64,000 bases of DNA from Cetorhinus maximus (lineage: Eukaryota): positions 39,432,001-39,496,000 of the forward strand of contig NC_135895.1 in assembly GCF_964194155.1 (NCBI RefSeq), read 5' to 3'. Within the stretch, counting starts at the first letter, position 1, and each line of letters begins with the position of its first letter. Made by a program: the position numbers and the translations under genes. Shown here in pieces: positions 11,674 through 34,862 of the stretch. The notes under the pieces are model-generated. The model had not been told where the DNA came from. It did no database searches and was given only the letters and a program-made list of their open reading frames with translations.

Positions 11674-14375
11674 TCTAATTATCAGTCACTGCCCTCAATT
11701 TCACCGCCCAATGCTGTCTGACTACTGATTGACTGGTGTCAAAGCCGTGGATGAGAAAGCATATTTTCAAATAATATAAGCAAGGCCAAGGCCATGCTTT
11801 CAACTTCCACATAGAAATCCATCCACTCCTTGCTGCATATTCAAAATGAGCCCAACAGTATATAATGTCAGTATACTGACCTACCAAGTGTTACTTTAAA
11901 ATGCATATGATACCCATCACAAAGACCACCCATCTTTATCACAGTATTCCCCATTTTGCCTTTACCACACTACCCACCATCATTGCTTAAACTGTATACT
12001 CACCTCCAGGCTCAATTCTCCAGCTTATCCAAAACAGCACGACCATGATCCTATTCCTCATTAAGTTCTAACTCACTGTCACGGTCATCCTGTCAATTCA
12101 CCAAGGCTCCCTCCTCCTTACAAAGCATTTAAATCAAAATGCTCATTCTTTAAAGATAATTTTCTCCATGGACCTGTCCCACTGTACCTCAAACCACTTC
12201 CAGCACTATATGAATCTTTTACTTATTCAATTCTAGTCTTCTTGATATTCACCTTTCTTCATTCTAAAATTGGTGCAAAAAGGATGTACTTCTCCAAAAC
12301 CACCTCAGCTCTACTCACGACTGTCACGATGGCTTGGATCCACTAATATTACCTTTATTCAAGCCCTCAGTGACAACCCTGTGCAGTGTGTGACCGACCT
12401 TGGTCGGTCAACTAATTTAAGTGATAGAAGCAGCTGCAGCAACCTTGCACCTGCCTATTGCCAGCTCCTGGATCTATCAAGCCTTTATTTTCTTCAGCCT
12501 GCCTGCACTGCTGGGTGATCTAAACTTGGATAGCTCTGTCTCTTTTATCTGGTTTCACACAGTATCAGTTTCCCCAGAAACCTGAAGTTTCAGTTTTCCT
12601 TCCCGTTAGGCTCTGACTTTAAAAATACAAGCTTTGAAACAAGGATCAGTGCATCTAACAGAACATTCAACAAGACACCTATTCAGATAACAACTGCACA
12701 TCCTCCCTCGCTGGTCTCGCAGACCACGGATTCCATCACACTACAGAAACTGTCCCAAACCCTCTGCTTTGCTACTCCTCTCCTATATTAAATATGCATG
12801 ATAAATCAGGGATTTATATAGGTGTATGTAAAATATACAAACATATTCACATTCTAAGAGGATCAATCAGGAGATGGCTGTTCTGAAAGGCTACTCTGTT
12901 TCCTAATCTCACTACATCCCAGTTGCAGTTCATACACAATGCTGCTACTTCATGGTGAGAATTGCCCATAGCAATGTTTGCTGCTACACCAGGGCAACAT
13001 TATCAGGTGGGGCAACTAGAAACAGTACTGCAAAATGAATAAGAGTGCTTCTGTGTACTTAGATGTGAAGAGACCCTCTTCATACTTGTGTGAGTGGGCT
13101 AAAAGGGAAAGAATACCTCAGTGAAATGTGAGCATAGCGACAATAAGAGACTAGTGATGGAATGATTAAGAATGAGTTAGAAAAGGTTGATTGCTTTTTA
13201 AACCAGCAAAACAGGTTACAGTGGATCTAAATGGGACTGACAATTGAGGTACGTTTTGAGTAAGTATACTCTGTTATCTGTAGATTAAACCAAATTGTTT
13301 GAATTTTCCTAACAAAAATTTTATTGGATTAAAAAAAATATTGGTTCTGGACTGGAAAAAAAACAGCCTGCATTTTAGAATCTACAAGTTGTAAATTATC
13401 TATTGGCAAGAGGAGGATCTAATATTCGAAAAACATTCTGGAAATGTAATTGGTTTGTGTTTTGACAGGGCAAATGAAACTAAATTTTCAGCCTCTGGCC
13501 CTCATATGAATGCAAGCTGTTGCCAAAAATCATGAGATGTATAATGAAATTAATTAAATTTGGTTTCAATTGAAATTAATATGTTGATGTAATAGAAATG
13601 GAAAATAATGCAAGTGGCTAAAACTCCTAATAAGTGCAAAGATTTTTGCGAATATAACTTAAACCCAATCCAAGCAAATGCAAACGTTGCCAATGAATTA
13701 TGACACCCTAAAAAAACATCTAATAACATTAGTTTGCACGATTTAGGATCATTCGCACATGAGGAAAGTGTAGCCTTGGGTGTGAGATAATGGCAGCTGT
13801 GGGTGGGTGGCTAAGCAAACAGAAAAGAGCTGGCAGCCTTATTTCAAGCGTGTTATCCACGTTATTTCACACTTATGGGGGGGAAAACCCGAAATTTGAA
13901 GTGGAGCTTCATGCTTTTCCAGTAACAAACACAATAAGAAGTCCTAACAAGCGAGTTGTGGACACATTCAGCCTCAAAAGAAAACCATTATTCAAAAGTA
14001 ATTACTACATTGAACAGTTTCAACCTTTCGTACTTTTTTAACCGAACAAAAACATAATCCACATTTGTGGTGCATAAATAAGCCGTGGACTAACAAACAC
14101 AAAATGCAAGTTTAGGCCACAAAACAAGTGTCACGGCATTCAAAAATAAAAACCTGACAAATAACCATAAACCTTTCCCACACGAGGAACAGGTTACAGA
14201 ACAAAAAAATATGCAGTGAACATCTTACATTTGGTTCTGGACTCTGAGAACAGTAAATGGTAAGAAAGAGCGTAAAGCGGCTGCTGAAGCCACGATGATG
14301 ATAATAACAACAAACACTGGGGCCAAAATGGCGACAAAGCAGGCTGCAGGGCAATAACATTGGCTGCCTACCTAC

Positions 14376-14650: not shown

Positions 14651-14810
14651 GCGCGCGCGCGCTCGCGGGGATTCCACCAAAACACGGAAGGAGGCGTCAG
14701 CGAGCGGGGCGGGGGAGTCACGTGCCGCTCGGTCCTCTGACGTCACAATCAGCGAGCATTGTTGTGCTGTGTCCATCAGCCCTCCCCATTCCCTCGGCGG
14801 GCAATGCTCA
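14600..14810. promoter_or_regulatory. CpG-island housekeeping promoter
   Basis: (CG)n run at about 14650; GC box GGGGCGGGG 14706-14714; E-box GTCACGTG 14717-14724; full CRE TGACGTCA 14738-14745; YY1-like AAAATGGCG at about 14325. Confidence 0.8.
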
Positions 14811-15676
14811 ATTTGCCCATTTGTTTCACTCTGTGGAACAATGCGAGGGGCTAGAAAATTTGTAGTACCCCCCTCGAGCTGTCTGCCTAACATGGAATAT
14901 ATACTGCGAATATTAAGAGTATTTAAATTGTACTGAGGCACCTCATAGAGGAACATGCTGTATGCAGAAAAGTTGAATTCCATTGCACTTTCTGTAATTT
15001 TTCAATTTGAAATGCTTTTTGTCCTCAGGCTGGATGCCTGACATGCAATGTATATTCTAAACATAAAGAGTCTTACAATTGCATAGAGTGAAGAGTGGAA
15101 CATACACGTCGAATTTTATTGTACTTACTGTAATTTTCAAATGTTTTGTAATGTACTTTTACAAATTTTTGAATAAAGTATATTTTGGGGGAAAAGATTT
15201 GTTTCACTCTAGTCTGCCACGGCTGCCTGAAAACAAGATTTGGCGGGATGTGGTGCGAGTGGGAACTACACCTGTTATTTTTAAAAAACATTTTCTCAAT
15301 TCCCTCCGCACCAAACTTGTGTTTTCCCACTTTATTGAATGGAGGTGGCAAGGATGAGTTCTGATTAAGGATTGTCGACTTGAAATGTTAACTAATTTCT
15401 CTCCACAGACGCTGCCTGACTTGCTCCAGCATTTTCTGTTTTTATTTTTGACAGGGAGCAGTGAAGGCTGTGTGCATGGGGCTGCATCATATCTTGATAG
15501 ATCAGGTGGTCTTTTTCATACCTGAATTAAGTTGTGGATGAGCGAAATTTTTCTCCAATTTATTATCAAAGAACAGCCATTGTTTCCCAACCTACCTAAA
15601 GTTCTGCTCCTTTGTCACAAAGCATTCCATTTCCTGTCTAATAAAAAGCCATCAACCCGAAAAGTTAACTTTGGCT

Positions 15677-15719
15677 TCAGTTCTGCCGAAGGGCCATGAA
15701 GGCTCGAAACGTTAACTGA
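15677..15719 (+). ncRNA. Minimal type-I hammerhead ribozyme-like motif in a Penelope-derived repeat
   Basis: Stem I TCAGTT/AACTGA; core CTGCCGA (A6>C variant) plus an extra A; stem II GGGCC/GGCTC; GAAA; palindromic loopless stem III ACGT; putative GUU cleavage triplet. Confidence 0.65.
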
Positions 15720-16729
15720 TTTCTTCTCCGCCGATGCTGCCAGACCTGCTGAGTTTTTCCAGATAATTCTGTTTTTGTTTTGAAAAGTTAACTCTTGTTT
15801 CTCTCCACAGTTGCTACCTGATCTGCTGAGTATTTCCAACATTTTGTTTTTGCGAGGGGTAACTTTGTTGGTCTGTATTTCAAACCTTGTATGCTATCCA
15901 TCACCAGAACGATTCCACCTTTGCAACATTGCTTCACTTTCATCACAAGTTTATATTTCTGATTTTGCTAACCTTGTATTTATCATGGGTTAGATTTCTC
16001 ATGGATTACATTTCTAAGCGCCTCTCATCTACTACCTGTGAACTTGTTGATTTACAATGGATCTTTGTTCCCCAACACATTGAAATTAAAATTTTAATCT
16101 GCAAATTCCTCCACAGACACATACTAGCCCATATCCCTCTCCAACTTTATGTTCCTATAAGACCATAAGCAGAAGTAGGCCTTTCGGCCCATCGAGTCTG
16201 CTCCACCATTCAATGAGATCATGGCTGATCTGATAATCCTCAACTCCACTTTCCTGCCTTTTCCCCATTACCCTTGATTCCCTTATTGATTAAAAATCTA
16301 TCTATCTCAGCCTCCTTCCTGTTTTTCAAGTCCTCTCTTCTGTTCTGTTATTCCTTTTCACTCCGCTGTACTTTGAATGAGCTAAAAGTCTGTAGGGATA
16401 GTACTAGTCTCCCTCTGTAACTCCAACATTCTGTTGACTTTTTGCCAGTTACAGTGGAACACCAGTGGAAACCTGTGGAATTTTAGACCCACTTTCTTTT
16501 AAGTCTTTCATTGACCTGGACCAAGGCTTAACTTTGAGCCAGGCTGACTCCGTGTTAAACGGAAGATTGGCCAAGACAGTGGCTCTAAAAGGGCTGTTAC
16601 TTTGCTGCTAAAGGAGTTTTGTTTCGTTCCTTGAAGAAATTATTTTCCAGTAAGTATGGCAGAGGCAAGAAGGAATATGGGTAATCAAACCAATGACCAC
16701 CTTGGAGAACCTGATGCAGATGGTTAAAA

Positions 16730-17030
16730 CTCACTCACTTTTCCAGAACCGCTTTATCCAGTACAGAGTCACAGGGAGTAGGAGCCTATCCCGACAGGCA
16801 GTGGGTGCAGTACATCCAAGACTGGATGCCAGCCCATCACAGGGCGCACACACACACACTAAGGGGCAATTTAACCATAGCCAATCCATCTAACCAGCAC
16901 GTCTGCACGGTGGGAGGAAATCAGAGCACCCAATGGAAACCACACAGGGAGAACTTGCAAACTCCACACAGACACCCGAGGTGAAAATCGAACCCGGGTC
17001 CCTGGAAATGTGAGGCCACCGTGTCACCCA
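16730..17030 (-). mobile_element. V-SINE (HE1/DANA-like tRNA-derived SINE)
   Basis: Minus strand reads GGGACCCGGGTTCGATT (B box), V-domain GTGTGGAGTTTGCAAGTTCTCCC, and tail GGATAAAGCGGTT...(GAGT)n. Confidence 0.8.
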
Positions 17031-17935
17031 TGGTTAAAGTTGCTTGGATGTAACTTGTGGAGAAAATGAATGGAATATGCCAGGTTAGAGGAGTAAATCA
17101 GTGTTTTGGCACACATTATTTTACCTGAGACATAGTTCGCATGGCACAAACCAAAATTGTGAGCTGCAGCACCTTCAAATTTTTCCATTCTTCTTTCAAT
17201 CTAGCAATCAATCTACCCTGAAATCATTGTAGCATGTTTTTCTTTCTCAATTTGTTTTTGAACATAATTCAGTGTTTTAACTGATATTTAATAACATTCA
17301 AAGCGCCTGCAGTTTTTTGGCACTTGTTACCAGAAGTGGAATGGTCATAACCATTTAACCACTCAATAGAAGCGGTGATACTTTATCAGCAGAAAGAAAG
17401 TTTGTTGAATTACATTAATGTTTAGCTTTCAAAGGTTCAATGATTTAATCATAATTTTGTTTTATCTGTCAAAAATGTTTCTCATTGTACAAAACAGGAA
17501 ATAACTTTACACATGATAGTGATAACATTATTCTCCCACCTTTCACTACTAAAATAATTAAAAATAATCCTGCATATTATTACAAGTAATGTACAGGGGT
17601 GGGATTATGATGAAAATAATCTAGGTTCTAAAATGTGGTTTATTTGACATTGGATTGTAATCTCAAAATAATCCAACCTGTCATGTATTCTCTCACTATA
17701 AATTATTGATTTCCCCTTTGTTTTGAAACTATTATATCCTTGTGCTGATTGTGTTAATTTAAATAAAGGTTTTGTTTGTAGGCAAGGATTTGTTTTGCAC
17801 AATTTTCCAACAGCTGATAAAACCACTGCACCTTCAGACAGGGAAGTTTACAACACTACCTGGTTTGGCCTGTTCATGACTCCAGTGCTTTAATAAAATG
17901 CTAATTAACTCAGTTGAGTGCCACTCAATTGCCAC

Positions 17936-18259
17936 TAGGGTTGTGAGGTTTCATCACATGACTTGCCCTCCTGCTTCAGCCGTTAGTTGGCCAACACAAC
18001 CATTTTTGGGATGTTCTGCCTTCCTATGCCAACTGGAAAGCAAAAAGGGACATTACCCATTTGGATAATGTTTGACTATCAGCCAAACAGCATTTTTTCC
18101 TTCATTTTCAATATTTTTATATCTGGTAAAGGGAAATGTTAAAAGTTTTTTTTTAAAAATCTCGATTATTTTTCCCCAGGGTTGCACACAGCGGGGTCCT
18201 GGAGATTGATCTTCAATTCCTGGAGACTCCTGGCCAATCCCGGAAGGTTTGTAACCCTA
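17936..18259. mobile_element. Non-autonomous hAT-like DNA transposon (MITE)
   Basis: Terminal inverted repeats TAGGGTT / AACCCTA; 8-bp TSD ATTGCCAC (17928-17935) and AGTGCCAC (18260-18267), 7/8 match. Confidence 0.65.
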
Positions 18260-18669
18260 AGTGCCACCCATGTTGAGGGGGATTGACAGACGAGGGAAGA
18301 AGTGGGCTGCATCAAATGACCACGTTTCTTGTTGTGCTTATTTTTCGCGTTATGGGGCTTCAGAAAATGGGTGAAGTTTTGACCCCAGTTGTGTGATTTT
18401 CCAACAACTCCATACACTGCTGCTGGTTTACCATTTCCTCTGGTGCTTATGAGTTCAGCACAGTCAATCTGAAACCAGACACCATTAGAAAAACAATACT
18501 GACAATCCACAATGAAAATAAAAACGAAGGGCTCGTACAGTGGTAACCAGCGCAGAGGGGGGTGGGGGGAATCCTTTCAATATTTCGGGTTGGCGACCTT
18601 TATACTGAAAGACCTGGTTTGTATTCCCAGCAGTTTAAACTAAAACGAGAATGGGATATTTTTCAGATC

Positions 18670-18854
18670 ATTCTGCGCTTCCTCGGGAACTGAGAGCAGC
18701 CGCTTCCCTCCTGTTTCCTGGCCCGGAAGTGAATGGCGGTGACCCGGAAAGAAACGCCGCTTTCGAGGTTGCATTGATTTCTCTCCCCCCGTGGGCCGGG
18801 AATTCGGTTTGGGGGAATTTTGTTGCTGGATTTCTGTCGACTTTCTCGCTGGAG
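18670..18854 (+). promoter_or_regulatory. TMEM69: TMEM69 promoter and non-coding exon 1
   Basis: CpG-rich; ETS/GABP site CCGGAAGT 18723-18730 followed by YY1-like ATGGCGG; strong donor GAG|GTAAGC at 18854/18855. Confidence 0.7.
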
Positions 18855-19447
18855 GTAAGCGCGTGATGTTCTCTAACCTTGGAGCTGCTGCTCGGGGAGG
18901 GATCAGTCACATCCAAAAATAACTTGTTTTTTTTTAAATAACCTTGTCAAACACCCCAAGGCCTTCCACAGGTACAGTATCAAACAAACCAATGGGCGCA
19001 CAACCACACAGGGAGGTGTTAGGGCAGATAACCAAAAGCTTAGGTCAAAGATGTACATTTTAAAGTAGCGTCTTGGTAAAGTTCATGGTCGAGTCACGTC
19101 CATTGGGGTTCGGATTGTTCTTGGCCAAGTGGTATTTTTCACATTCAAACCGTATTCATTATTGGGGTTAGTGCTGTCATTATTTTAATAAAGGGTGTCT
19201 CAATGTGATGGTTGTCATTCTGTAAAGACAATCCCACTCTATAGGCAGTATTTAATGGAGGTGACGGGGGTCTCGCTCGCCCGCCGGCTGGAGAGCCTGT
19301 AGAAGCCCCGCCCCTCCCGTTGCCTCTTTTAGGGCGGGCGGGCCCACCAAATTAAGTGCCACTCAAAAACCACGGGCCGAGAGCTGCCGGCCTATTTATT
19401 ATACGTTGGTAGTTCTTCTGAACAGCACTGCCACCAGGGAGGTAGTA

Positions 19448-19813
19448 TAAAAACAAAAAGCTAAAAGCTACTGCGGATGCTGGAAATCCAAAACAAAAAC
19501 AATTACCTGGAAAAACTCAGCAGGTCTTCCATTCTTAATTAGCACTTTTCTTAGACAAATATCACCACCTTCAACACCTCTTTGATCCTTTTGTCTGTGA
19601 CATCTTTTGATTATCTGCTCCTATCACTGCTTGCTTATCTCCACAATCACCACACCCTCAACTTCTCTCTCCCCCCGCCCCCCCACCTTAAACCAGCTTA
19701 TATTTCACCTTTCTCCTAACTATGCTTCAGTTCTGCCGAAGGGTCGTGAAGACTCGAAACGTTAACTGATTTCTTCTCCACCGATGCTGCCAGACCTGCT
19801 GAGTTTTTCCAGG
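19448..19813 (+). mobile_element. Penelope-like pseudo-LTR fragment with an inverted 5' piece and a hammerhead motif (19727-19769)
   Basis: 19448-19527 is an inverted copy of the 3' end. Body matches 26620-27060 and 32650-33155. Motif TCAGTT-CTGCCGA-A-GGGTC-GTGAA-GACTC-GAAAC-GTT-AACTGA. Confidence 0.8.
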
Positions 19814-21136
19814 GAAGTAGTATGACTGTTGCCAGTACGATACCCAGCTGAGGCCTAGTATCATTGCTAGATCCCAAGCCATAGGTGAATGATGGGAGGA
19901 GGAGGGGGGAGATGTAGAGTGAGATTGCAGGGGATAGGGGGTCAGCAGCAAGGCCAGGTGGCTGGCTGTCTGCCCCCTACCCCCTGATATCAGGTCCCTC
20001 AATCACTTTGAACAAGGGACCCCCATGGGAGCCTGCAGACTTATGCTACCAGCATAGCGAGTCTCCTGTTGTATTTATACCAGTAGCGACAAGATGAAGC
20101 CTGTGAGGATCCTGAATTTTGATGGACACCGAATTTTGGACATTCTTCCTCCTGAGTTATTTTTAAAAGTTTGAATATTAATTTGGGGCTGTGAATGTCT
20201 CATTCTTCAAGAAACCACGGTTCAAGATGGAGAGGGAAGAGATACTTTGTATATCTAAGAAAGAACTGCTGTTGCCAAGCTAAAGACTTTTGCTGATAGG
20301 CCAGGTGTTTTTAACCAAAGAGAAGTATACTTTGAACAACTTAGTCTTTAAAACTCTCAGGCAGAGTGTGGTGTGCCTTGGAAGCAAGCTGCAAGGAAAA
20401 CACTCTTGTCTTTCCCTCCCTCTACCCACCTTTGTGTTAAACTTTCTTCAGAAATGTCTCATTGGAATAAATAATGTTTTTTTTTAAAGTCTGCAAAGTT
20501 GTGATAAGTCAGAGACATCAAGGACAGTTTCACCAGAAAAATCCATCTTAGAGAACTTCCAGATCTATTGTGATCAGAATTCTGCAAGATCAACATTATC
20601 AAAATCTCCTCGAATTTTATCCTCTTAAAATAAACGTTCCCATACTTCAGCCTCTGCAGGAACTGTTTGTTTTGTCCTATTTTGTGTTTGTGTGCGAGTA
20701 TATGGGGGTTCGAATATCTTTTTTAAAAATAAGGGAAAATCATTACACTTCTAAACTACAACTTGTATGGTAACCAGTTTCATAACTTGTTTTAAAAAAG
20801 TTTATTTTATAATAAATCAATTTTTTTTGTTTACTGAGAGAAGACTGGTTAGAGTCTTTTTAACTGTGGAGAAGTGGGGCTAGAATTAACTGCACCCTCC
20901 CATCTTGGTCTGTAATAGCCCTTAAATGGGCAATAATTGCCACTTAAGGTCATTAATTGGTGGCAGGGCAGGAAAGTCATGCACAGGCCTCCCAGCCACA
21001 GATTTAATCAGGGTGGAGGTGGGAGTAATGGGGTTCCTACCCACCACCCTTTCTGTCTGATTAAATGCACCTCTAACCACCAAAATGTAATTAAATCCCA
21101 CCAAAGTATGTAAATGGGTCTGTAATCCAGGTCAAT

Positions 21137-24100
21137 ATACATCAGGTCTGACAGCATTTGTGGAGAGAAAGACAGAGTTAACGTTTCGAGTCTGTATGAC
21201 TTCAGAGCTAAAGGGAAATAGAAATGTGGTGAAATATATACCGTTTAAGGGAGGTGGAACAGGTGAAGCTGGATAGAAGGCCAGTGATAGGTGGAGGCAA
21301 AGGAGAGATTGCAAAAGATATCATAAACAAAAGGTCAAAGGGTTGTTAATAGTGGTGGTACTGGCTAAAGGAGGTGGTAATGGTGGCATTAAGAGTGGAA
21401 AGCAGAATGTGATAATGGCCAGACCAGGGTAAGCATTCTGGAAACTGACAAATGGCCCTCGTGGGGGTGGGGTGGGGAGAGGGGACGGTGGTGGGAAAAA
21501 AGATCGAAAATAGGCTAAAATCTGGGGATAAAACAATGAATAGAAATGGAAATAAATTTTTAAAATAATGAAAATAAGTGGGAATAAATAAGTAAAAATT
21601 AAACAATAAAAATGAATATAGAAAAAAGGGGATCAAAAAGGGGTGGGGATGGAGAGAGAGTTCATGGTCTGAAGTTGTTGAACTCAATGTAAAGTGCCTA
21701 ATCGGAAGATGAGGTGCTGTTCCTCCAGTTTGCGTTAAGCTTCACTGGAACATTGCAGCAGGCCAAGGACAGACATGTGGGCATGAGAGCAGGATGGTGT
21801 GTTGAAATCGCAATCAACAGGAAGGTCTGGGTCATGCTTGCAGACAGACCGAAGGTGTTCTGCAAGGCAGTCATCCAGTCTTGCTTTTGGTGTCTCCAAT
21901 GTAGAGGAGAATGCGTTGGGAGCAAAGAATGCAGTAGACCAAATTGAGGGAAGTGCAAATTGAAAGGAGTGTTTGGGCCCTTGGACGGTGAGGAGGGGTG
22001 AAGGGGCAGGTGTTGCACTTTCTGCGATTGCATAGGAAGGTGCAGTGGGAGGGAGTTGAGGTGTTCGGGGTGATGGAGGAGTGGATCAGGGTGTCCCGGA
22101 GGGAACGGTCCCTACGGAACACCAAGTGGGGGTGGGTGGGGGGAAGAAGATGTGTTTGGTGGTGGCATCATGCTGGAGTTGACGGAAATGGCGGACGATG
22201 ATCCTTTGAATGCAGAGGCTGGTGGGGTGAAAAGTGAGGACAAGGGGGACACTATAATGGTTCTGGGAGGGAGAGGAAGGTGTGAGGGCAGAGGAGCAGG
22301 AGATGGGTCGGATAAGGTTGAGGGCCTTGTCAACCACCGTGGGTGGGAAACCTTGGTGAAGGAAGACATGTCAGAAGCACTGGTTTGGAAAGTGGCGTCA
22401 TCGGGACAGAAGCGAAGGAACTGAGAGAATGGGATGGAGTCTTTACAGGGAGCAAGGTGTGAGGATCGGTAGTCGAGGTAGCTGTGGGAGTCTGTGGACT
22501 CATAATGAATATTGGTGGACAGTCTATCACCAGAAATTGAGACAGAGAGGTCAAGGAAGGGAAGTGTCGGAGATGAACCATGCGAAGGCGATAGAGGAGT
22601 GGAAATTGGAAGCAAGATTGATAAATTTTTCCAGGTCCAGGCAAGAGCATGAAGCACACCAAAGCAGTCATTGATGTACTGAGAAAAGAGTTGTGGGAGG
22701 GGACCCGAGTAGGATTGGAAAAAGGAATGTTCGACATACCCCATAAAGAGACAGGCATAACTGGGGCCCACGTGGGTACTCATAGCCACAGCTTTTATTT
22801 GGAGGAAGTGAGACAAGTTTAAGGAGAAATTGTTCAGTGAGAGAACAAGTTCAGCCAGACAGAGGAGCGTGGTGGTGGATGGGGATTGTTCGGGCCTATG
22901 TTCAAGGAAGAAGCAGAGAGCCCTCAGACTATCCTGGTGGGGGATGGAGGTATAGAGGGATTGGACGTCCATGGTGAAGAGGTGCCGGTTAGGGCCAGGG
23001 AACTGGAAATTGTTGATATGATGTAGGGCATCAGAGGAATCGCTGTTGTAGATGGGAAGAGACTGGACAAGGGGAGAGAGAACGGAGTCAAGATAGGAAG
23101 AAATGAGTTCCGTGGGGCAGGAACAGGTTGATATGATCGGTCTACCGGGACAGTCCTGTTTGTGGATTTTGGGGAGGAGGTAGAAGCGGGCTGTCAGGTT
23201 GGGAGACTGAGGTTGGAAGCTGTGGTGGGAAGGCCCCCAGAGGAGATGAGCTTAGTGACAGCCCTAGAAACAACGGCTTGATGCTCGGTGGTAGGGTCAT
23301 GGTCCAGGGGCAGGTAGGAGGAAGTGTCTGAGAGTTGGCACTCAGCCTCTGCGAGGTAGACGTCGGTATGCCAGACAGCAACAGCACCACCCTTGTCGGC
23401 AGGTTTGATAAAGTTAGGGTTTGACCTGAGAGAACGGAGTGCGGCAAGTTCAGAAGGAGACAGTTTAGAGTGGGTGAGAGGAGCAGAGAAATTGAGACGG
23501 CCAATGGCACGTCAACAGTTTTCAATGAAAAGATCAATGGCAGATAAGAGGCCAGAGAGGTCCAGTGGAGGGAGAATACTGGAAGCGGGTCAAAGGATCC
23601 GTTGAATGGGGGGAGGACTCCTGCCCAAAGAAGTGAGCACAGAGACGAAGGTGGCGGAAGAAGAGTTCAGCATCGTGCAGAGCCCGGAATTCATTGAGGC
23701 GAGGGTGTAAGGGTATGAAACTGAGTCCTTTGCTGAGTACAGAATGTTCAGTATCAGAGAGGGGAAGGTCAGGAGGTATGGTGAATACACAGCAAGGGCT
23801 GGGATTAGAAGACGGGATGGGGTCAGAGGGACAGGCAGGGGTAGAGGGTCCTGGATGGACATTGGTATCAATGAGTTGTTGGAGCTTGCGTTCCTTAGCA
23901 CCTGAAAGAAAGAGACAAAGTTACTTGTTAAGGCGTCGGATGAGACGAAGAATAAAATGAAACTGGGGGCAAGGACAGCTTTGAGATAGGGTGAGTCGGT
24001 GCTCCTGGAGGGAGAGTTCGAGTGTGTTCATATGGCGGTGCATGGCACTGAGTGTGGATCTCAGGATGCGACAAGAACAGCAGTCCGAGGAACGCTGCAT

Positions 24101-24390
24101 GTCCCAGAGATACCTGTAATTCTAGATGGATTCAAAACATGAGGGATGGAACTTCAGTTGGAATCGACGTGGGGTAAGTCGGAGACGGAGACAGTCACTG
24201 AGGAAGGAAATATGGCTGTGAAAGCGAGTTTTAGTAAACACCTTGTCAAAAACCAGGAGGGAAATGGAAAGCAATGAAGGTGAACAGGGCAAAAGAGACA
24301 AGCGGAAATCCTGTCGGAGAGAAGAGCAGTACTTCTTCAAGGTCAGCATTCCTGGAAGAGAGTGGCAGTGAATTAAACATCAAGATAAAG
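21137..24390 (-). mobile_element. Near full-length Penelope-like retroelement (RT + GIY-YIG endonuclease), inactivated
   Basis: RT motifs MDVQSLYTSIP, AMSTHVGPSYACLFMG, QYINDC (degenerate YIDD), FLDLSV; GIY-YIG NLVYCILCSQRILLYIG. Frameshifted across ORFs from 21698 to 24349. Confidence 0.92.
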
Positions 24391-25388
24391 GCAAAATACT
24401 GTGGATGCTGGAAATCTGAAACAAAAACAAAAAATGCTGGAAAAATTCAGTTCTGACAGCATCTGTGGAAAGACAGAGTTAACGTTTCAATTCTGTATGA
24501 CTTCTTAAGAGCTAAAGGGAATTGAAATGTATTGAAATATGTACTGCTTAAGGGGGGTGGAATATGTGAAGCTGGATAGAAGGCCAGTGATAGGTGGAGG
24601 CAAAGGAGAGATTGGAAAAGATGTCATAAACAAAAGGTCAAAGGGTTGTTAATAGTGGTGGTACTGGCTAAAGGAGGTGGTAATGGTGGCATTAAGAGTG
24701 GAAAGCAGAATGTGATAATGGCCGGACCAGGGTAAGCACTCTGGAAAGTAACAGATGGCCCTCGTGGGGGTGGGGGAGCAGGGGACTGTGGTGGGGGAGA
24801 AAAGATCAAAAATAGGCTAAAAGCTGGGGATAAAAAACTGAATAAAAATGGAAATAAATTTTTAAAAATAATTATTATGAAAATAAGTGGGGGAAAAATA
24901 AACAATAAAAATGATTATAGGAAAAGGGGCTGGGAATGGAGAGAGAGTTCATGATCTGAAGTTGTTGAACTCTGTTTTTTTGCCCCTTTCTCCCCCCTCC
25001 TCCACCCCACCCCCACTAGGGCCATCTGTCATTTTCCAGAGTGCTTACCATGGTCTGGCCATTATCACATTCTGCTTTCCACTCTTAATGACACCATTAG
25101 CACCTCCTTTAGCCAGCACCACCACTATTAACAACCCTTTGACCTTTTGTTTATGACATCCTTTGCAATCTCTCCTTTGCCTCCACCTATCCAGCTTCAC
25201 CTGTTCTATCCCCCTTAAACAGTATATATTTCACCACATTTCTACTTCCCTTTAACTCTGAAGCCATACGGACTCGAAACGTTAACTCTTGTCTTTCTCT
25301 CCGCAGATACTGTCAGACGTGCTGAGTTTTTCCAGCATTTTTTGTTTTTGTTTCAGATTTCCAGCATTCCCAGTATTTTGCCTTTATT
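24391..25388. mobile_element. Tandem pseudo-LTR (minus, 24391-24970) plus inverted pseudo-LTR (plus, about 24975-25388) upstream of the Penelope ORF
   Basis: 24460-24970 repeats 21145-21685 in the same orientation, and 24975-25388 is its reverse complement. This is the classical Penelope direct + inverted pLTR arrangement. Confidence 0.85.
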
Positions 25389-25639
25389 AATATATCAGCC
25401 TTGTCAACCATGGCCAAAGTTCTAATAATTTGAGATGTTTACAGAAGCTTGATGAAGTTTATTCAACACAATTGCTGTATAGTCCCTAAATCTTGTGAAG
25501 AGAGGTATCTATCCACATTTCAATGATTTTAAGTTATTCTTGTGTTTCCAGGGATGAATGGAAAGAGGGAAAATAAAAGTAACAGGTTGGTGCTTGGGTT
25601 GGGGATCCTTATTGGAAAACTACTTTCAGGACCCCAGAA

Positions 25640-26000
25640 TTGTGGTAATGTTACAGGACGAGTAATGCAGAGACTAATGCTCTGGGGACATAGGTTCAAA
25701 TCCCACCACAGCAGCAGCTTCAGGAAATTAAGTGTAAGTTATTAATCTGGAATAAAATGCTGGTTTCATGTATAATGATCATGCAACTATTGGATTGTTG
25801 TAAAAACCCATCTGTTTCAGTAATGCCCTTTAAAGAAAGAAATCTGCTGTGTTTACTTGGTCATGCCTACATGTGATTCCAGACATACAACAATGTGGTT
25901 GATCCTTACCTGCCCTCTGATATGGCCCAGGAAGACACTGTTGCGTCGCCACCTCCTGCTCAAGGCAAGAGATTGGCAATGTTCACATCCTGAGAACGAT
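25640..26000 (+). mobile_element. tRNA-derived SINE sharing LINE-derived body and tail
   Basis: GGTTCAAATCCCACCAC B box; body similar to 35620-35915. Confidence 0.65.
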
Positions 26001-26617
26001 TTTTTAAAAAGTGGTCTGCATCTTCAGCATTGACCTGCTCTCTTTATCCATCAGCTGCTGAAGCCAGCTCAATTTTGCCAATTCTTTTATACTTTTTCTA
26101 ACTACCCACATATTATCCATTGTCATATGTATGTCTTTAGTTTTGCTCACCATGCCTCTTTTTGCTTCATGCAGATATCGTTTCTGCCGTTTAACTATCT
26201 CCATTGAAGTACTTTCCAGGTCATTCTATTTATATTTCTGTATAAGGGATCATTGTATACTCCTTGTATATTTTCCTTTCCCTTTCTGTTCCTTTTTAAA
26301 TGCAGTCCACCAGTAATATATTCCAGTTCTGAGGAAAGGTTAATATCCAAAACATCATTTTTGTTCTCTCTACAGGTGCTGCTCAACATACTCGGTGTTT
26401 TAGATTTTCAACAACTGCAGTGTTTTAGATTTTGTTCAATGTTTTTAGTACTTAACTGATTACTGAATGAGCATTGGGTGTATTGCATGTTTCTGCTGCT
26501 AGAGAGCAGGTCAATGCTGAAGATGCAGACCACTTTTTAAAAAATCGTTCTCAGGATGTGAACATTGCCAATCCCTTGCCTCGAGCAGGAGATGGCGACA
26601 CAACAGTGTCTTCCTGG

Positions 26618-27060
26618 ACAAAACAAAAATTAAAAAAATAATATCCATCCATTGTTTTATCTCTACCTTTTAGCCTTTTTCGATTCCTTCACCCCACCCC
26701 ACCCCCCACTAGGGCTATCTGTACCTTTCTTGTCCTGCTTTCTACCCTTAATTAGCATATTCCTTAGATAATATCACCACCATCAACACCTCTTTGTCCT
26801 TTTGTCTATGACATCTTTGGGTCATCTCCGCCTATCACTGGCCCTCTATCCAGCACTACTTGTCCCACCACACCCCCCCCCCCAAACCAGCTTATATTTT
26901 ACCTCTCTTCTATTTTTGCTTGGTTCTGTTGACGAGTCATGCGGACTCAAAACATTAACTGTGTTCCTCTCCGCAGATGCTGCCAGACCTGCTGAGTTTT
27001 TCCAGTTTTTTTTATTTTTGTTTTGGATTTCCAGCATCCGCAGTTTTTTGCTTTTATCTT
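26618..27060 (+). mobile_element. Penelope-like 3' fragment with 13-bp TSD
   Basis: TSD AGTGTCTTCCTGG at 26605-26617 and 27061-27073; degenerate hammerhead at 26921-26961 (stem II GAGTC/GACTC). Confidence 0.85.
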
Positions 27061-27394
27061 AGTGTCTTCCTGGGCCATTTCAGAGAGCAGTTAAGGATCA
27101 ACCACATTGTTGTAGGTCTGCAATCACATGTAGGCACGACCAAGTAAACACAGCAGATTTCCTTCTTTAAAGGGCATTACTGAACCAGATGGGTTTTTAC
27201 AACAATCCAATAGTTGCATGATCATTATACATGAAACCAGCATAGAAGCTGCAAGCTAGCAGGTGATGGAAAGAAAATTACTCCCATTACCCTTTGGCTA
27301 CAGTTTTCCTGTTAGCACCTTGCACATGTTTTGGCCTCTGTGTGCAAACTAGCTGAGAGATTGAGATTATAAATGACCAGATACTCAGTTTTAA

Positions 27395-27632
27395 TGATGA
27401 TGGTTGAGGGATAAACGTTGGCCAAGTCACCACCAAAACTTCCCTGCTCTTCTATTCTTTGAATGCTGCCATGAGTTCTGGTGTATCCACCCGAGAGGGC
27501 AGGTGGGGCAGTGGTTTCATGTTTAATCTAAATGTCGTTACTCCTTCAGGACTGCACCTAGATTGTGTGCTCAAGTCTCTAGTGTGAGGCTTGAACCCAC
27601 AATTTGCTTACTCAAGAGGCAACTGAGCCAAG
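27395..27632 (-). mobile_element. Deu-domain SINE (SacSINE1-like), degraded
   Basis: Minus strand GGTTCAAGCCTCACACTAGAGACTTGAGCACACAATCTAGG...GCCAACGTTTATCCCTCAACC resembles the Deu-SINE consensus as recalled. Confidence 0.6.
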
Positions 27633-28531
27633 GGAGAATTGCAGTTCAAACCAGGAAATATAAATGAGCATATGAGACCAGTAGCTACTGTTTAAATGCA
27701 CAGAGTACTGTAGGAGTTCTCAAGTTATCAGTCTTAGTGCACAACACAGATGAGTCATGCGCAAATTTAATGTTTGCAACAGTGATCCAGCGGTCCTTTC
27801 GTATTGTTTTGGGCTTTACAACTGTGAATTGAATCCAGTTGGGAATAGAGATTTTTTTGTCATTCAGCATCTTAAACGTATGGCAGGAATAATAATGCCA
27901 TTAGGGACAATGGACATCATAAAAGCATCATGTGAGTTTTCTGAAGTGCTACCCTAGGCTAATATTTACATCTCTTTTGACATCTGCTGTCACCACCCAG
28001 GCATGTTTCTGCACTTTGTGGAGATGCTTTCATTTAAAGAATGAGGGAGACATTATAATGTTGGTAAATTGACTTTTGGTAGAATTTCAGTTAAGATATG
28101 CTTGTAGTTATTTTGTAATGTCGCTTGAATGGTCCTTTGTGCCTTTCCCGTCAGGGGAGTTCAGTACAAAATAGCTATTCCCAACCGGCATCAAAATAGC
28201 AATTTCAAGTAAAGCATAAGTTAAGAATTGGAACAGAGAAACAGTAAATACACAGGCAGTTAATTATAAGGCTGAGAATTATAGAACAACAGGGAATATA
28301 CTTCCTTGCCAAGTCGCGACTGCAATAAAAATATCTAAATTAAAACAGTGTTGTTGGGCCAAACATGACTAAATTTAGATTAATGATTATTTTCAGGGAT
28401 AAGAGGCCACCGGGCTATATCTACTTGATGTAATTCAATTTCTAAAAATGCTCTTACACCCTAACTGTACTGATAGTCGATTATATAGACTTAAGATTTA
28501 TTTTGTTTTTTTCAGGTGTCCTGCCCTTAAG

Positions 28532-28576
28532 ATGTTTGCATTTTTGATGAGGCGATGCTTTAAAATAACTAGCAAA
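28532..28576 (+). CDS. TMEM69: TMEM69 first coding exon (MFAFLMRRCFKITSK); exon starts at 28516
   Basis: Polypyrimidine tract and CAG acceptor ending 28515; ATG at 28532; phase-0 donor AAA|GTAAGT. Peptide resembles a mitochondrial presequence. Matches the short-then-long exon layout of mammalian TMEM69. Confidence 0.8.
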
Positions 28577-28899
28577 GTAAGTGTTGAACATGCTTAAAGA
28601 ATACATTTGTTGGAACTACACAAACTAGATTTGAGTGTATTATACTGTGCAGTGCTTTAACTTTTCCACTAAACATTGCAATTGTAAAAATAAAAGTAAA
28701 GAGAATATAGCCCAAGGGAGCTTAAGTCAATGTAAAAGTAGTATTGGAAGTCATCTGGGTTCCTATGATAAATCCATTTTGATAAATACATGTTGAAAAG
28801 ATAAATATGAATCTGTATTTTAATTCTAACTGCTGGTGGGTCAAAATCAAGACACTCAACAATGTAAAAGTATATGGTTCGTTCTTTTCAGGGGTCTTT

Positions 28900-29350
28900 T
28901 ATTCTTTAATGGGATGTTTTGTTGCCCGTCACTAATTGTGTGGCTTGGAGGGAACTTGCAGGTGTGGTGTTCCCATGCAACTGCTGCCCTTGTCCTTCTA
29001 GATGGTAGAGGTCGTGGGTTTGGAAGGTGCTGTCAAAGGAGCCTTGGTGAGTTGCTGCAGTGCATCTTGTAGATGGTACACACTGCTGCCGCTGTGCGTC
29101 AGTGGCGGAGGGATTGAATGTTTAAGGTGGTGGATGGGGTTCCGATCAAGCAGGCTGCTTTGTCCTGGATGGTGTTGAGCTTCATGAGTGTTGTTATAAC
29201 CAGACAAGTGTAGAGTATTCCATCACACTCCTGACTTGTGTCTTGTAGATGGTGGACAGGCTTTGAGGAGTCAGGTGAGTTAGTCACCTTAGAATTTTCA
29301 GTTTCTGACTAGCTCTTGGAGCTACAGTACATGGCTGGCTGGCTTCTGGT
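28900..29350 (-). mobile_element. 3' fragment of CR1-like LINE (6770-9790 family)
   Basis: KLNTIQDKAACLIGTPSTTLNI peptide on the minus strand. Confidence 0.8.
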
Positions 29351-29679
29351 CAGTGCTTAATATGGTACAAAAGATTTCAACCAATAAAAATATGCTAATA
29401 TTGGGATGGGGTGGGGAGAAAGATAAGCAGTTAAAAATAGTTGCAACTGCATGAACTTCCAAAGTCACTGGTATAGTGAGAAATAGTTCTTCAGACCAAA
29501 TCACAGGGCAGAAGTTTCTGTATTAAGTGCACAACACAGAGGTGTAGAATGAAAGGACTTTGTTGTAATTTTTATTGCTCCCCTATTACCCGAAGGAGAA
29601 TTTCCTCATAGTACAAGCTCTGGGTCCAGTGTATGCCATACATATGAATTGTATTGATAATTGTTACTCTATACTCTAG

Positions 29680-30393
29680 GTTCAAAAATTATCACAGGTT
29701 CCAAATGAATCAAGAAACATCATGTCCTATAACTTACTGACCTCTTCTTGTCTGCAAAGAAGATTTATGACACATCAAAACATCAAGTACTTGCAAAGAT
29801 CTGCATCTTTCTGGACTCAGACAAGCTGTTTTCATGTGTCCTGTCAAGCATCCAAGATAAAGAAAATGGAGGAACCAGAGAAACGTGAATTAGACTTAAT
29901 AAGATATGATTACAAAGAACTGAAGAACAGTCCCAAACCTGCCCTCTACCTCAGCTATGGTGGATTAATTCCTTTTGTATCAGCTCCCCTCATAATGGCC
30001 ATAACAGAGACATATTTCCCTGAACTAGCTTTTGCCCAAATTGCATATGGAGCAACGATTCTTTCTTTCATTGGAGGAGCACGTTGGGGATTTTCAATTC
30101 CAGAAAGCAGCCCTGCAAAACCTGACTGGTTGAATCTGGGAAATAGTGTGGTCCCTTCCTTGCTAGCCTGGGGAGCCCTACTCTTCCATGATAATCTCAC
30201 TGAAGCAGCAATTCTGATTATCATGGGTCTCGGTATAGCATTGCACTATGACTTAGCCTTACTCCCAGGTTATCCAAGCTGGTTCAAAGCTCTTCGTACA
30301 GTGCTGACTGTGGTAGCCACATTCTCTTTAGTTGCCACATTAGTGATCAAAAATACATACCCTGAGAAAAAGCTAGTGTCAGATAGAAAATAA
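29680..30393 (+). CDS. TMEM69: Transmembrane protein 69 (DUF3429), main coding exon; full protein 252 aa
   Basis: SPKPALYLSYGGLIPF, QIAYGATILSFIGGARWGF, GYPSWFKALRTVLT are DUF3429/TMEM69 signatures. TAG acceptor at 29678-29679 is in frame with the ORF; stop TAA at 30393; AATAAA at 30809. Confidence 0.95.
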   Translation, partial: VQKLSQVPNESRNIMSYNLLTSSCLQRRFMTHQNIKYLQRSASFWTQTSCFHVSCQASKIKKMEEPEKRELDLIRYDYKELKNSPKPALYLSYGGLIPFVSAPLIMAITETYFPELAFAQIAYGATILSFIGGARWGFSIPESSPAKPDWLNLGNSVVPSLLAWGALLFHDNLTEAAILIIMGLGIALHYDLALLPGYPSWFKALRTVLTVVATFSLVATLVIKNTYPEKKLVSDRK

Positions 30394-31069
30394 AATCATC
30401 AAGGTTTTTTTTCGTTTTTCAAATTGGGTAGCAGCAGAGAGCACTTTTTTTTAAACTGACTCAAATAAAACTGATGTACAGTTTTTAGTGCAAACTCAAA
30501 AAATGTTTACTAGCCTTAACTTCAACTCGGGTATCTAATGTTTAAACAGACGATGCAATCAATAATGTCAATACTGCAAAATACAATACTTTGTAAAATT
30601 CCTTCTATAACAAGTGATGATTGACAACTAATTCATGACTGTGTTATATTTCAGAGGGCGTCTTATCACCTTTTGAAAATCTAACCATTGAAAGATCTCT
30701 AATTAACTTATACATTATTCCTTTTGTGTTTTTTTTAAACTGATCATATATAAGTATTGTCAATGTTGTGATCTAGCAAAGAAAAAGAAAACACAATAGT
30801 GAATCCTGAATAAAGGTCTTTATGTCAAAGTTTATCTGTTGGTTTCTTTATTACTGGCTACAATCTTACACAAGGTTAAAAGGATTTATTGCTAGCTGTT
30901 TTAGGCAAACTGGATCAATGTAAATTACAGCATGGCGAATGTTAGCATTTCAGGACATGGTACAGGTGCATTTAGTCGCAGAAATCCTTTGTGTGCATGG
31001 ATTGATTGTTTGCAATATACCTGGACATGAACCAATCAAGCAGGTAACTATATTGCTGAAAAAAGAGAT

Positions 31070-31107
31070 GCTATCAAAGCCTTTTGTCTTACACTCATCA
31101 GGATAGC
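31070..31107 (-). ncRNA. Second-family minimal hammerhead ribozyme-like motif
   Basis: Minus strand GCTATC-CTGATGA-GT-GTAAG-AC-AAAA-GGC-TTT-GATAGC: perfect 6-bp stem I, intact CUGAUGA, GAAA read as AAAA. Confidence 0.55.
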
Positions 31108-32319
31108 TCATAAGAAATTACCAACTGTAATGGGGGAACAACAATTTATAATCATGAGAAGAGAGTGCTGTTTTGTGGAGGCGTTACTCAAGTTCTGTAC
31201 TAACAAACAACTATTTATATTGACAATCAATTAAATAAAACCATTTAATTGAATTCCAAGCACCTAAGAGATTGACATCCTGAAATTATCAGCTTGTTTG
31301 GGGTGACAATGTAGGTCAGGTCAGGGCCATGATTAATTATTGTCACTTTGCCAGACAACTCTGGGCCCATGAGTTTCCTATTGTCTTATATATAATTGGC
31401 AATATCAGCTCAGCGAGTCAGTTTGAAATTAGCATTCATTCTGAACGAAGCAGAGACTGTGCTGGCATTTTATATAAGAAATGAGTGGCTATGTTTTAAG
31501 GAACACTGTTACATTGCAAGGTAACAGAGGAGAAGCATCTTGTATGTTTTTACATTTCAAAGTTTAAAGATACTCTAAAGATACTTTTTGTACTGAAGAC
31601 CTTCATTCACCTTTTTAATAGTAAATAGCTTCGTCTGTCAGTTTATACTCTGAGCCTCAGTCTGGTAGAGTCTGCCCCATTGAAGACAAGGGGGGCATGT
31701 GATGGCATCTGATTATAATCCAATAAATAAGAACATAGGGGCATGGGGTTGCCGTTCAATTCGCAGGATTTGCTACACTTTAATTGGGTAGATAAGGATA
31801 AACACTCTGGTTTGTTGAGGATACCAGCATATTTATTGAAGTGGTCATTGATGTTGAATTTAAGTATATCCAGCGTAAAAATCCCAAAAGTCCTTGTAGA
31901 AGGAATTTTACAAAGTATTATACTTCGCAGTATTGACATTATTGATTGCATCGTCTGTTTAAACATTAGATACCCAAGCTGAAGTTAAGGCTAGTAAACG
32001 TTTTGAGTTTACACTAAAAACTTGACTTGGTCGCAATAAAATGCTCACTCTGCAGTGTGTATGGTGAATCAGGCAGTCTTTGGATGACAGTATTAAGTAT
32101 ATACGGTATTAAGAAACCAAAATCTGTTTTGGGTAATATAATTTTTACAATTAATCCACCTGACGGAGAAATGAACAAAATTGTTGAACCAGTAGGTCAT
32201 GTTATACATTCAACCTCATCTTTCCTATTTAGGCCACTGCTCAATGTTCCCTGGAGACAAGTGATCTAGATATGCAAATTCAGATAACTAGCTGCTTTAA
32301 AACTGATGAAGTTAATTGA

Positions 32320-33155
32320 CAGACTGGGTGACCGCTTTGCAGAACACCTTCGGTCTGTCCGCAAGCATGACCCAGACTTCCCTGTCGCTTGCCATTTCAA
32401 CACACCACCCTGCCCTCATGCCCACATGTCCATCCGCAAGCATGACCCAGACTTCCCTGTCACTTGCCATTTCAACACACCACCCTGCCCTCATGCCCAC
32501 ATGTCCATCCTTGGCCTGCTGCAATGTTCCAGTGAAGCTCAACGCAAACTGGAGGAACAGCACCTCATCTGCTGACTCAGCACTTTACAGCCTTCCAGAC
32601 TTAATATTGAGTTCAACAATTTCAGATCATGAACTCTCTCCTCCATCCCCACCCCCTTTCCGGTCCCCCTTTTTCCAATAATTTATAATTTAAAAAAAAT
32701 ATTTTTCTTTTCCCACCTATTTTTAAATTTATTTCGATCTATTGTTTTAACTCCACCTTTTAGCCCATTTCGATCCCTTCCCCCCCACCCCACCCCCACT
32801 AGGGCCATCTGCCACTAGCTTGTCCTGCTTGCTACCCTTAATGTCCCCGTTAGCACATTCCTTAGATAATATCACCACCGTCAAGATCCCTTTGTCCTTT
32901 TGTCTATGACATCTTTGGCAGTCCCTTCTTTGCCTCCACCTATCACTGGCCCCCTATCCAGCTCTACCTATCCCACCCCCCTCTACCAGCTTATACTTCA
33001 CCTCATTTCTCTATTTCTTTAGTTCTGATGAAGAGCCATACAGACTCAATGTCAACTGTATTCCTCTCCACAGATGCTGTCAGACCTGCTGAGTTTTTCT
33101 AGGTATTTTTGTTTTTGTTTCAGATTTCCAGCATCCGCAGTATTTTGCTTTTATC
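32320..33155 (+). mobile_element. 5'-truncated Penelope-like element (GIY-YIG C-terminus + pLTR) with 8-bp TSD
   Basis: RLGDRFAEHLRSVRKHDPDFPVACHFN; TSD TTAATTGA at 32312-32319 and 33156-33163; hammerhead remnant AGTT-CTGATGA-A-GAGCC..GACTC-AAT-GTC-AACT at 33021-33057. Confidence 0.9.
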
Positions 33156-34862
33156 TTAATTGAAGAGCAACTGTACCTGCTTGGATTGTGGGGTTCAGGT
33201 CAGAAGAGCACAACATTTAGTGGATTTTATTTTTAAGATTATTTTGCAACACAAGCTTCTTTGTCCAGCCTGTGAAGTTCCTTTCTTTGAATTTGCCAAA
33301 GTCGGCTTTGTGCACATGTGCAATGTACTTAAAGCTCTCAAGAGTGCAGTACTAACAAAGGTTGTTGCTTCCAATTGGGGAACCATCTTTACCATCTGGC
33401 CTGGATATTTTAAAGAGCTGCAGCATCTCTCTGGTTCTCTCTACGACATCATTATTTGAAAATATGCACCCACCAGCAGAGTACAACAATGCTGTCAAAA
33501 TGGTCATCAGGCATTTGTGCAGTATTTGGAAGGCCCTGATCTCTCTAGCAACCGTTGACAACCAAAGTTGTTCGACATATATATATCAGGTCTACACAAA
33601 ACCTATAAATATAATGCAAAAGTTAGTACAACAAATTGTGTATACATATCTTAATGATGATTAAGAAATATTATTCAAATATTGCCATGGTATTGGAACA
33701 GGAGATTTCATTTATTATACAAACTTTAATTTATATAGCACATTTAGAGTAATAAAAATATCCAAGGCACTTCAGAGGAGCTATATCAGATAATATATGA
33801 TACCCAGCCACAGCGATATTAGGTCAAAAGACTAAAAGTTTGGTAAAGATGTAGTTTCAAGAAGTGATTTAAAAGGAGAGGGTGGAGAGGTTTAAAAAGG
33901 AATTCCAGAGTTTAGGGCTTAGTCAAATGAAGGCATAGCTCCAGTTGTGGAAGGATGAAAAGCTGAAGATATTGTCCCAGCTGATGTGAAATATTGTCAA
34001 TTCAAAATATCTGAATAATAAGCATCTCATTTTTCATTGTTGTATAGAGATAAGCAAAACAATTAATTATGCTTGAATACATTTATTAAGAAAATATACA
34101 TAAAAGAAACCATCAGTATATATCAATCCACACATAGAGAAAAGTACAGCTTTATTTGGTACATAAAGCCCCGAGTAATAAACCACTGCTCAGCTATCTA
34201 ATATTGCTAGCACTTATGCCGAAATACCGGTAATATGCAAAACCACCTTCAGGTATAGTGCAGACTCTGGACATCACTTAAAAAAGGCAATAAGTCAGCT
34301 AAGTCACTCCGTACCATCAGAAATATTCACTTGGCTACATTCAAGGAAAACCACAATGAACATATCCACAACCCTAATTGAGGTTTTGTACAACAAGTTG
34401 TACGATGTTTCAAGTTCTTATTTTTCTAAACTGCACTTTATTGAAATAAAAACACAGCTTTTAAGAAAACAGCTGTTTGATGTTTTGGTTAATTGTATTT
34501 GCTTTTAGAATTTTAAAACCCTGCCATTAACTTGGATAATAACTGACTGTCAACTGAAAATCTGTTACTGTGGGAGTTCTGATCACTGTGGCATGTGTTG
34601 AAATTCACTTCTTTCATTAAATCAAATTTATTTCAAATGAAATTATAGAAACGTCTACACATTTCATTTAGTAAGTAACACAATCTTATTTTTTTTTTGT
34701 ATATTAGTATTAATGTTGCCAGCTCTTCGCTGAGTCCTCAACTTGAAACCCAATGGTAGCTTCCTTTAGCACAATGGAAATAGGTGATGATAGTTCAATT
34801 TGACATACTGATTTTCTCCATCTAGGAGTAATTTTGATAAAGTATCAAAAGGCAATCAACTG

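Follow-up and report, generated by a model that had tools for sequence, protein, structure and literature searches.

Dispersed hammerhead ribozyme motifs occur in a 64,000-nt stretch of the Cetorhinus maximus genome (NC_135895.1, positions 39,432,001 to 39,496,000, forward strand; hereafter the window, numbered from its first letter). Judged from sequence and layout, they are minimal type-I hammerheads in the pseudo-long terminal repeats (pLTRs) of a Neptune-like Penelope retrotransposon, which is a known arrangement. On the same grounds, this known kind of element carries a new and very abundant core variant, in which A6 of the CUGANGA core is replaced by U or C. The hammerheads of Penelope-like elements (PLEs) cut poorly in vitro, and in the one reconstituted system insertion proceeds without cutting. 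Here, tens of thousands of insertions accumulated after A6 had been lost, with the other catalytic letters fixed. At about even confidence, we favor the reading that the motif is a damped ribozyme which would still be under selection and cut occasionally.

Position 6 is U or C in most matched copies

One exact pattern, in which only position 6 was varied, was searched in the 4-Gb genome; reversed-pattern controls gave 0 matches in every pattern search. A6 was found in 13,310 matches and C6 in 10,343, while G or U gave 29,908 matches, of which 723 are G6 and hence 29,185 U6. Position 6 of the consensus core is therefore U or C in 39,528 of 53,561 matches; exact patterns favor young copies, so that old A6 copies are undercounted and A6 accounts for a larger share of the total than the matches imply. 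The preliminary description of the window had reported a recurrent A6>C variant. C6 is indeed widespread, but the commonest form is U6, from which C6 appears to be derived.

A further 5,896 copies constitute a subfamily with the stem II GGGCC/GGCUC (C-G subfamily), in which C6 is found in 98 and U or C in 99 of the 100 copies among the matches listed (tallies over listed rows are counts by eye). The GGGUC-RUGARG background contributes 11,173 non-C6 matches, with U6 in all 100 among the matches listed. An older AGGUC/GACCU family is canonical, with 92 A, 5 G, and 3 U in 100 among the matches listed (390 genome matches). That a subfamily had spread with a non-canonical core, as surmised from the window copies, is borne out: the 41-nt motif at 19728-19768 has 264 exact occurrences in the genome, and ~5,900 copies make up the subfamily that includes the form at 15677. 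Two other interpretations of position 6 were rejected. The 723 G6 matches amount to ~5% of the A6 count, lie in old backgrounds, and are read as decay rather than as a further subfamily. An alternative register restoring CUGA, with CUGAAG inside CUGCUGAAG as the core, fails on inspection, as stem II is lost and the C6C7 classes lack it.

U6 also occurs at the same position in contigs of three other organisms (20, 55, and 60 contigs; this denotes presence only, contig depth not being copy number), with no A6 rows among the matches listed. Raw reads of one other organism yielded 5 partial reads only and are counted as no evidence. Tentatively, a lineage common to several related species might have tuned the ribozyme down from A6 to U to C and then stabilized its stems, with cutting conditional on the element's protein or Mn2+; on this reading, the genome would hold the full series of intermediates and thus a natural experiment on the purpose of PLE hammerheads.

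Within the window, a descriptor with position 6 left free gave two matches versus none in any of 100 first-order Markov controls, which speaks against chance occurrence, and an Rfam scan of the window returned no hammerhead family at E<=10. Most young hammerheads of a vertebrate genome can escape descriptors that fix CUGANGA. Among the papers listed by our literature searches, one of which showed 20 of 578 matches, none deals with U6 or C6 hammerheads in Penelope-like elements or sharks; the 2017 work of Lunse et al. on variant PLE hammerheads may bear on novelty and could already mention changes at position 6.

The motifs reside in a Neptune-like Penelope element

The 86 nt around 19727 match at 100% at 40 of 40 scored genome places. 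Where they are collinear, the matching copies agree with one another at 96-99%; they are truncated at the 5' end and frequently accompanied by an inverted piece. The layout of endonuclease-bearing (EN+) PLEs, comprising tandem or partial tandem copies, pLTRs, an inverted 5'-truncated partner, and a two-step tail, is found at locus L031, where two hammerheads lie 3,306 bp apart with a frameshifted frame between them, in the window at 21.1-25.4 kb, and, as regards the tail, in the two 3' end peaks of the C6 copies described below. At locus L037, a stop-free frame of 925 codons ends 375 nt before a C6 hammerhead and, as in EN+ PLEs, joins a reverse transcriptase (RT) to a GIY-YIG endonuclease at the C-terminal end in a single frame. 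RVT_1 (E 6e-6) and GIY-YIG (E 6e-4) both score slightly below the Pfam cut-offs, and the YIDD and DKG motifs are visible. Further, the RT-EN linker of this protein contains a C-x4-C-x2-C zinc finger of the Neptune/Nematis type. A CX2-5CxxC finger in this linker is described as the marker of the Neptune/Nematis clade, and we base the putative Neptune-like assignment on this feature. In a check of 24 loci, none holds a complete stop-free frame (longest 645 codons), and a PDB sequence search with the element protein gave nothing useful. In the C-G subfamily, one tandem element (L179, G000:C1:16023500-16031000) has lost ~440 codons internally and carries hammerheads 1,984 bp apart.

The copies continue upstream into the PLE untranslated region (UTR) and frame and are not the short non-coding tandem hammerhead units of non-LTR retrozymes. 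Moreover, all nine class consensuses exhibit the hallmarks of PLE minimal hammerheads, namely an extra nucleotide after A9, G10.1-C11.1, and the palindromic ACGU. The preliminary description had correctly assigned the motifs to Penelope-like pLTR hammerheads with a short palindromic stem III, the loopless palindrome being a published hallmark; the extra A before stem II, which it regarded as unusual, is reported in the same source as another (PMC4209133).

Order of changes at position 6

We built a tree of 56 copies, taken from 67 with an upstream match of >=560 nt and limited to <=10 per class, from upstream sequence only, leaving the hammerhead out. The tree resembles a ladder leading from A6A7 via A6U7, U6, a mixed U6/C6U7 part, and C6C7 to the C-G subfamily (C6C7) at the tip. 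U6 and C6U7 rows are interleaved within one unresolved part. The root was placed at the midpoint, and the direction A6 to U6 to C6 is suggested because the A6 end branches are longer, the A6 classes are more diverged from their class consensus, and A6 is the general state. Median non-CpG divergence from the class consensus is 0.060 for A6A7 (n=6), 0.039 for old U6 (n=14), and 0.013-0.024 for the C6 classes. A replacement of A6 by U and later by C in the main lineage is thus supported by the upstream sequences.

Removal of an upstream AUG (A6-U7-G8) was considered as the cause of A6 loss and judged weak, as the subfamilies that followed acquired another AUG in loop II. In the older family, the A6-U7-G8 AUG opens a long frame, and in the A6U7 class one of 9 codons; the start codon, too, may at one time have kept position 6 in place. 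In several copies of the older AGGUC/GACCU family (L167-L178), the frame opened by the AUG runs through hammerhead and tail.

The motif remained constrained after the loss of A6

Comparing the oldest U6 class with the C-G class gives a UTR divergence of 0.25 per site, with changes at 13 of 139 four-fold sites (~0.09), 6 of 287 second codon positions, and 3 of 61 tail positions. In the 45-nt motif, 14 positions changed, but none of the 15 core positions (P about 0.0009 under random placement; one further change, a likely ordering artefact that would bring the count to 15, was dropped). The changes affect positions 6, 7, and 17, three loop letters, three stem II letters, and five letters at the outer end of stem I. 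Pairing in stem II was kept, with A-U turning into G.U at 10.2 and U-A into C-G at 10.4. The intermediate at 10.4 is represented by 54 U.G copies; C.A is absent and C-G present in 100 of 100 C-G subfamily copies among the matches listed. In 17 chosen rows, stem II is 98.8% paired with changes on both sides at 10.1 and 10.4, and stem I is 80% paired with its inner four pairs nearly complete, giving the two covarying stems of a PLE minimal hammerhead. Stem II covariation, proposed earlier from the window copies, thus holds at the subfamily level, and the class consensuses keep the core apart from position 6.

When 11 core positions were allowed to vary, 87 of 100 copies among the matches listed (5,840 C-G copies) are intact, and the other 13 carry single changes, 9 of them CpG-type. 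Anchoring on the tail yielded 152 in-register copies, of which the 16 off-pattern ones reveal no recurrent non-CpG core change (the sample is not random). C3, U4, G5, G8, A9, G12, A13, A14, A15.1-U16.1, and H17 are all retained, a constancy that is partly fixed by copy selection. This pattern bears on the possibility that the motif is a decaying vestige, which lost A6 by drift or hitch-hiking and whose remainder is too young to have changed. The low four-fold divergence over the same span and the two changes at position 6 would suit such decay. However, the changes avoid the entire core, the pair-keeping route through stem II led to the 5,896 C-G copies, and stem I gained pairs; a vestige, already disfavored, is very unlikely.

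Only in the C6C7 classes does stem I reach 6 bp and the hammerhead lie at or near the minimum free energy fold, with energies of -12 to -13 kcal/mol versus -3 to -8 kcal/mol. Such stabilization of stem I and the whole fold, together with the protein assistance reported for the Anolis ribozyme (PMC11167929), might indicate that U6 and C6 roughly equal the A6 ancestor in cutting, A6 being made dispensable by the geometry of the dimer, a longer stem I, or the element's protein. Full compensation is nevertheless improbable in our estimation, as the U6 phase, the largest, has just 4-5 bp in stem I, and changes of A6 were reported to be slow in two unrelated hammerheads, with second changes giving no rescue. 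A pseudoknot between loop II and the strand preceding stem I (GAG/CUC to GAA/UUC) was considered and set aside; it exhibits one apparent covariation and competes with stem I.

Insertion ends and the case for slow cleavage

For 101 C6 copies, the distribution of 3' ends has two peaks, at 64-71 and at 107-116 nt beyond the cut site. Insertions hence end 64-116 nt beyond an uncut hammerhead. The numbering of the cleavage positions given earlier, 15713 and 19763, is correct. In addition, 8 of the 101 copies have their end at the outer edge of stem I, 6 nt upstream of C3, and a tail-only mini-insert starting at about the cut site (L227, G000:C4:151094782) is flanked by what looks like a 13-nt target duplication. 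Copies that begin at the cut site were considered as fossils of cleaved RNA and rejected as such: the 135 genome matches of C6 copies form no excess. Among 30 of these loci viewed, ~7 are plain inserts starting within 2 nt, and the others are explained by point changes, by fold-backs, or by insertion into other repeats. The background is rough (an estimated ~9,000 copies; of 101 breakpoints, 36 fall within the 55 nt upstream), and the observed number is at or below it.

Published mutants make it likely that A6 loss turns the motif into a slow cutter. Changes in the CUGA turn are reported to lower activity without rescue in a pairwise scan (PMC9901934), and A6C to slow Mg2+ cleavage (PMC7151607, PMC3088659), to cut at <0.1 per minute (PMC3088659), and to prefer Mn2+ (PMC7151607). 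The Anolis PLE hammerhead is described as cutting only with protein, uncut RNA being the insertion substrate (PMC11167929). In the damped-ribozyme reading, the main lineage would have swapped A6 for U and then C, while the stems and the rest of the core were kept. Reverse transcription would start downstream of the cut site, and if the downstream hammerhead cut early, the body of the element would lose its priming tail. Slow cutting is plausibly favored because of this loss, a slower core leaving more usable templates. Residual cleavage would take place as a dimer through ACGU, probably helped by the element's protein, and we propose it as the reason why G5, G8, G12, and GAAA are kept.

The end data would equally suit a motif that no longer cuts and is kept as a protein-recognized RNA structure or as a splicing, transcription, or RT-priming signal, position 6 being free as it is needed for catalysis only. 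Besides the missing cut-site excess, a tail as conserved as the motif and insertion in vitro without cleavage (PMC11167929) speak for this reading, and so do the pyrimidine tract and YAG in stem I, which resemble the intron end described in helix I of the Drosophila virilis Penelope (PMC4209133). We nevertheless regard it as less likely: the unpaired G5, G8, A9, G12, A13, and A14 and the palindrome are fixed, some of them in CpGs, and loop II, N7, and H17 change as they do in working hammerheads, with H17 alternating only between U and C. The pyrimidine tract with its YAG end is located inside the stem I 5' strand in all class consensuses (window 15665-15680 and 19715-19730). A CTAAC branch-point-like motif occurs in the C6 classes, and a second acceptor-like CAG precedes an ATG ~20 nt past the cut site, reading CCG in younger classes.

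Several observations weigh against slow but selected cleavage. The absent cut-site excess fits no cleavage as well as slow cleavage. Zero core changes are weak evidence on their own, because the tail beyond the motif and the four-fold sites also changed little: P is 0.02 at the UTR rate, 0.22 at 0.10, and 0.47 at 0.05. Copies were mostly chosen by core-demanding patterns, a bias that the core-free and tail-anchor checks reduce in part, and exact patterns undercount old A6 copies. In the tree, 22 of 53 inner branches are unresolved and the class samples are small (2-14; A6U7 n=2). In the A6U7, U6, and C6 classes, the active dimer is computed to be 5-13 kcal/mol less stable than the cofold minimum. 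Moreover, Anolis catalytic mutants were reported not to impair insertion in vitro (PMC11167929), and Naiad PLEs are reported to spread without detectable hammerheads. The ordered natural variants and the intact frame from the C6 phase render selection for slow, protein-assisted, or metal-dependent cutting testable.

Comparison with known hammerheads

With the PLE minimal hammerheads of Cervera and De la Pena 2014 (PMC4209133), the motifs share type I, a palindromic 15.2-16.2 without a stem III loop, the extra nucleotide between 9 and 10.1, G10.1-C11.1, and the GUU/GUC cut site. The pLTR location, the ~3.3-kb tandem spacing, and the many single truncated copies also agree. In contrast, the published consensus is CUGANGAH, and A6 is found in every supplement alignment row seen, the sole core change in those rows being U3-A8. 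Cartilaginous fish are absent from these rows and from a text search of the file. U6 and C6 families would be missed by that census because its descriptor fixed the core.

The same core change as C6 is described for the phage Bcep176 hammerhead, a natural A6C that is slow in Mg2+ and active in Mn2+ (Perreault 2011, PMC3088659; Naghdi 2020, PMC7151607). While Bcep176 is a single phage sequence and a rare variation, ~16,000 C6 and ~29,000 U6 exact-pattern copies are present here, in a vertebrate retrotransposon with dimer-type architecture. This natural A6C and an engineered A6C in a second hammerhead favor Mn2+, in one case by >10,000-fold at 300 uM (PMC7151607), raising the prospect that C6 makes cleavage Mn2+-dependent and that metal supply controls processing of the element RNA. 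Yet the lineage passed through the larger U6 phase, for which we found a metal preference in no paper, and the authors themselves doubt a biological relevance, as Mg2+ far exceeds Mn2+ (PMC7151607); of the explanations weighed, control by metal is the least probable.

Poseidon of Anolis carolinensis (Frangieh 2024, PMC11167929) likewise has two RT start sites downstream of the hammerhead and a two-step tail, and its use of uncut RNA as template is matched by the 3' end peaks observed here. In Poseidon, the open reading frame is described as starting inside the hammerhead, whereas the frame of the C6 family starts ~180 nt downstream and its protein has the Neptune-type linker zinc finger. Non-LTR retrozymes (PMC7229834; bioRxiv 10.64898/2026.07.22.740005) similarly combine type-I hammerheads with PLE-linked animal repeats, but are reported as short non-coding tandem units, whereas the copies here are the ends of a coding 3.3-kb element.

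Copies and host locus in the window

All eight motifs named in the preliminary description, seven listed and one at 11.59 kb, lie where it had placed them, and a profile built from the window copies gave 16 pLTR-end matches on both strands of the 64-kb window, some of them partial (Table 1). Among the named copies, those at 15677 and 19727 alone are complete but for C6. The other window hammerheads decayed by deletion or CpG-type change, so that five of the seven listed copies, although present, are decayed fragments. The single copies are most likely inert fragments, and for the one at 15677 misfolding with the inverted sequence that flanks it is predicted.

Table 1. Hammerhead-bearing Penelope-like sequences and the host gene exon in the window
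Feature	Position	Strand	Remark
Decayed ends of older AGGUC/GACCU family, head-to-head pair	11462..11685	.	
Decayed pLTR end with hammerhead remnant	15356..15452	+	absent from earlier list
Minimal type-I hammerhead, C6 core CUGCCGA, stem II GGGCC/GGCUC, 6-bp stem I	15677..15719	+	short pLTR-end fragment, most derived subfamily
Inverted tail piece	19464-19530	-	beside pLTR fragment 19534-19812
Minimal type-I hammerhead, C6 core CUGCCGA, stem II GGGUC/GACUC	19727..19769	+	within pLTR fragment 19534-19812
Full-length decayed Penelope-like element, pLTR-RT/GIY-YIG-pLTR	21140..24972	-	hammerheads ~3.3 kb apart
Downstream-pLTR hammerhead, decayed	21175..21210	-	~5 nt of core/stem II deleted
RT + GIY-YIG frame of the decayed element	24361 to 21687	-	frameshifted
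Upstream-pLTR hammerhead, decayed	24475..24515	-	G5>U, stem II broken
5'-truncated inverted pLTR	24976..25390	+	partner of element 21140..24972
Hammerhead with deletion	25254-25290	+	~5 nt of core/stem II gone; inside 24976..25390
Decayed pLTR end with hammerhead remnant	26322..26426	+	absent from earlier list
pLTR fragment	26635..27061	+	
U6-class hammerhead, G12>A and G16.2>A	26921-26961	+	inside pLTR fragment 26635..27061
Host gene exon, DUF3429	29680..30393	+	
3' fragment, endonuclease end + pLTR	32321..33158	+	
Hammerhead with CUGAUGA but broken GAAAC	33021-33057	+	inside 32321..33158

The DUF3429 exon belongs to a host gene which we take to be TMEM69-like. The plus-strand copies are plausibly sense and intronic in this gene because near 18.7-18.86 kb there is a stretch, ending in a GTAAG donor, that may be the first exon. 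The earlier placement of copies in sense within TMEM69 intron 1 is hence plausible, with the exon confirmed, but the intronic position is probably incidental, the family having tens of thousands of copies. Candidate first exons were noted at a CpG island (14400-15000) and at a GC-rich stretch (18700-18860) that contains CCGGAAG motifs and the GTAAG donor. Exons of a BTB-BACK-Kelch gene, presumably IPP-like, are located on the minus strand at 34863-50272, together with a 27-nt tandem array at 50431-51013. RT fragments of CR1/L2-like LINEs (long interspersed elements) at 918-9790 are unrelated to the hammerheads.

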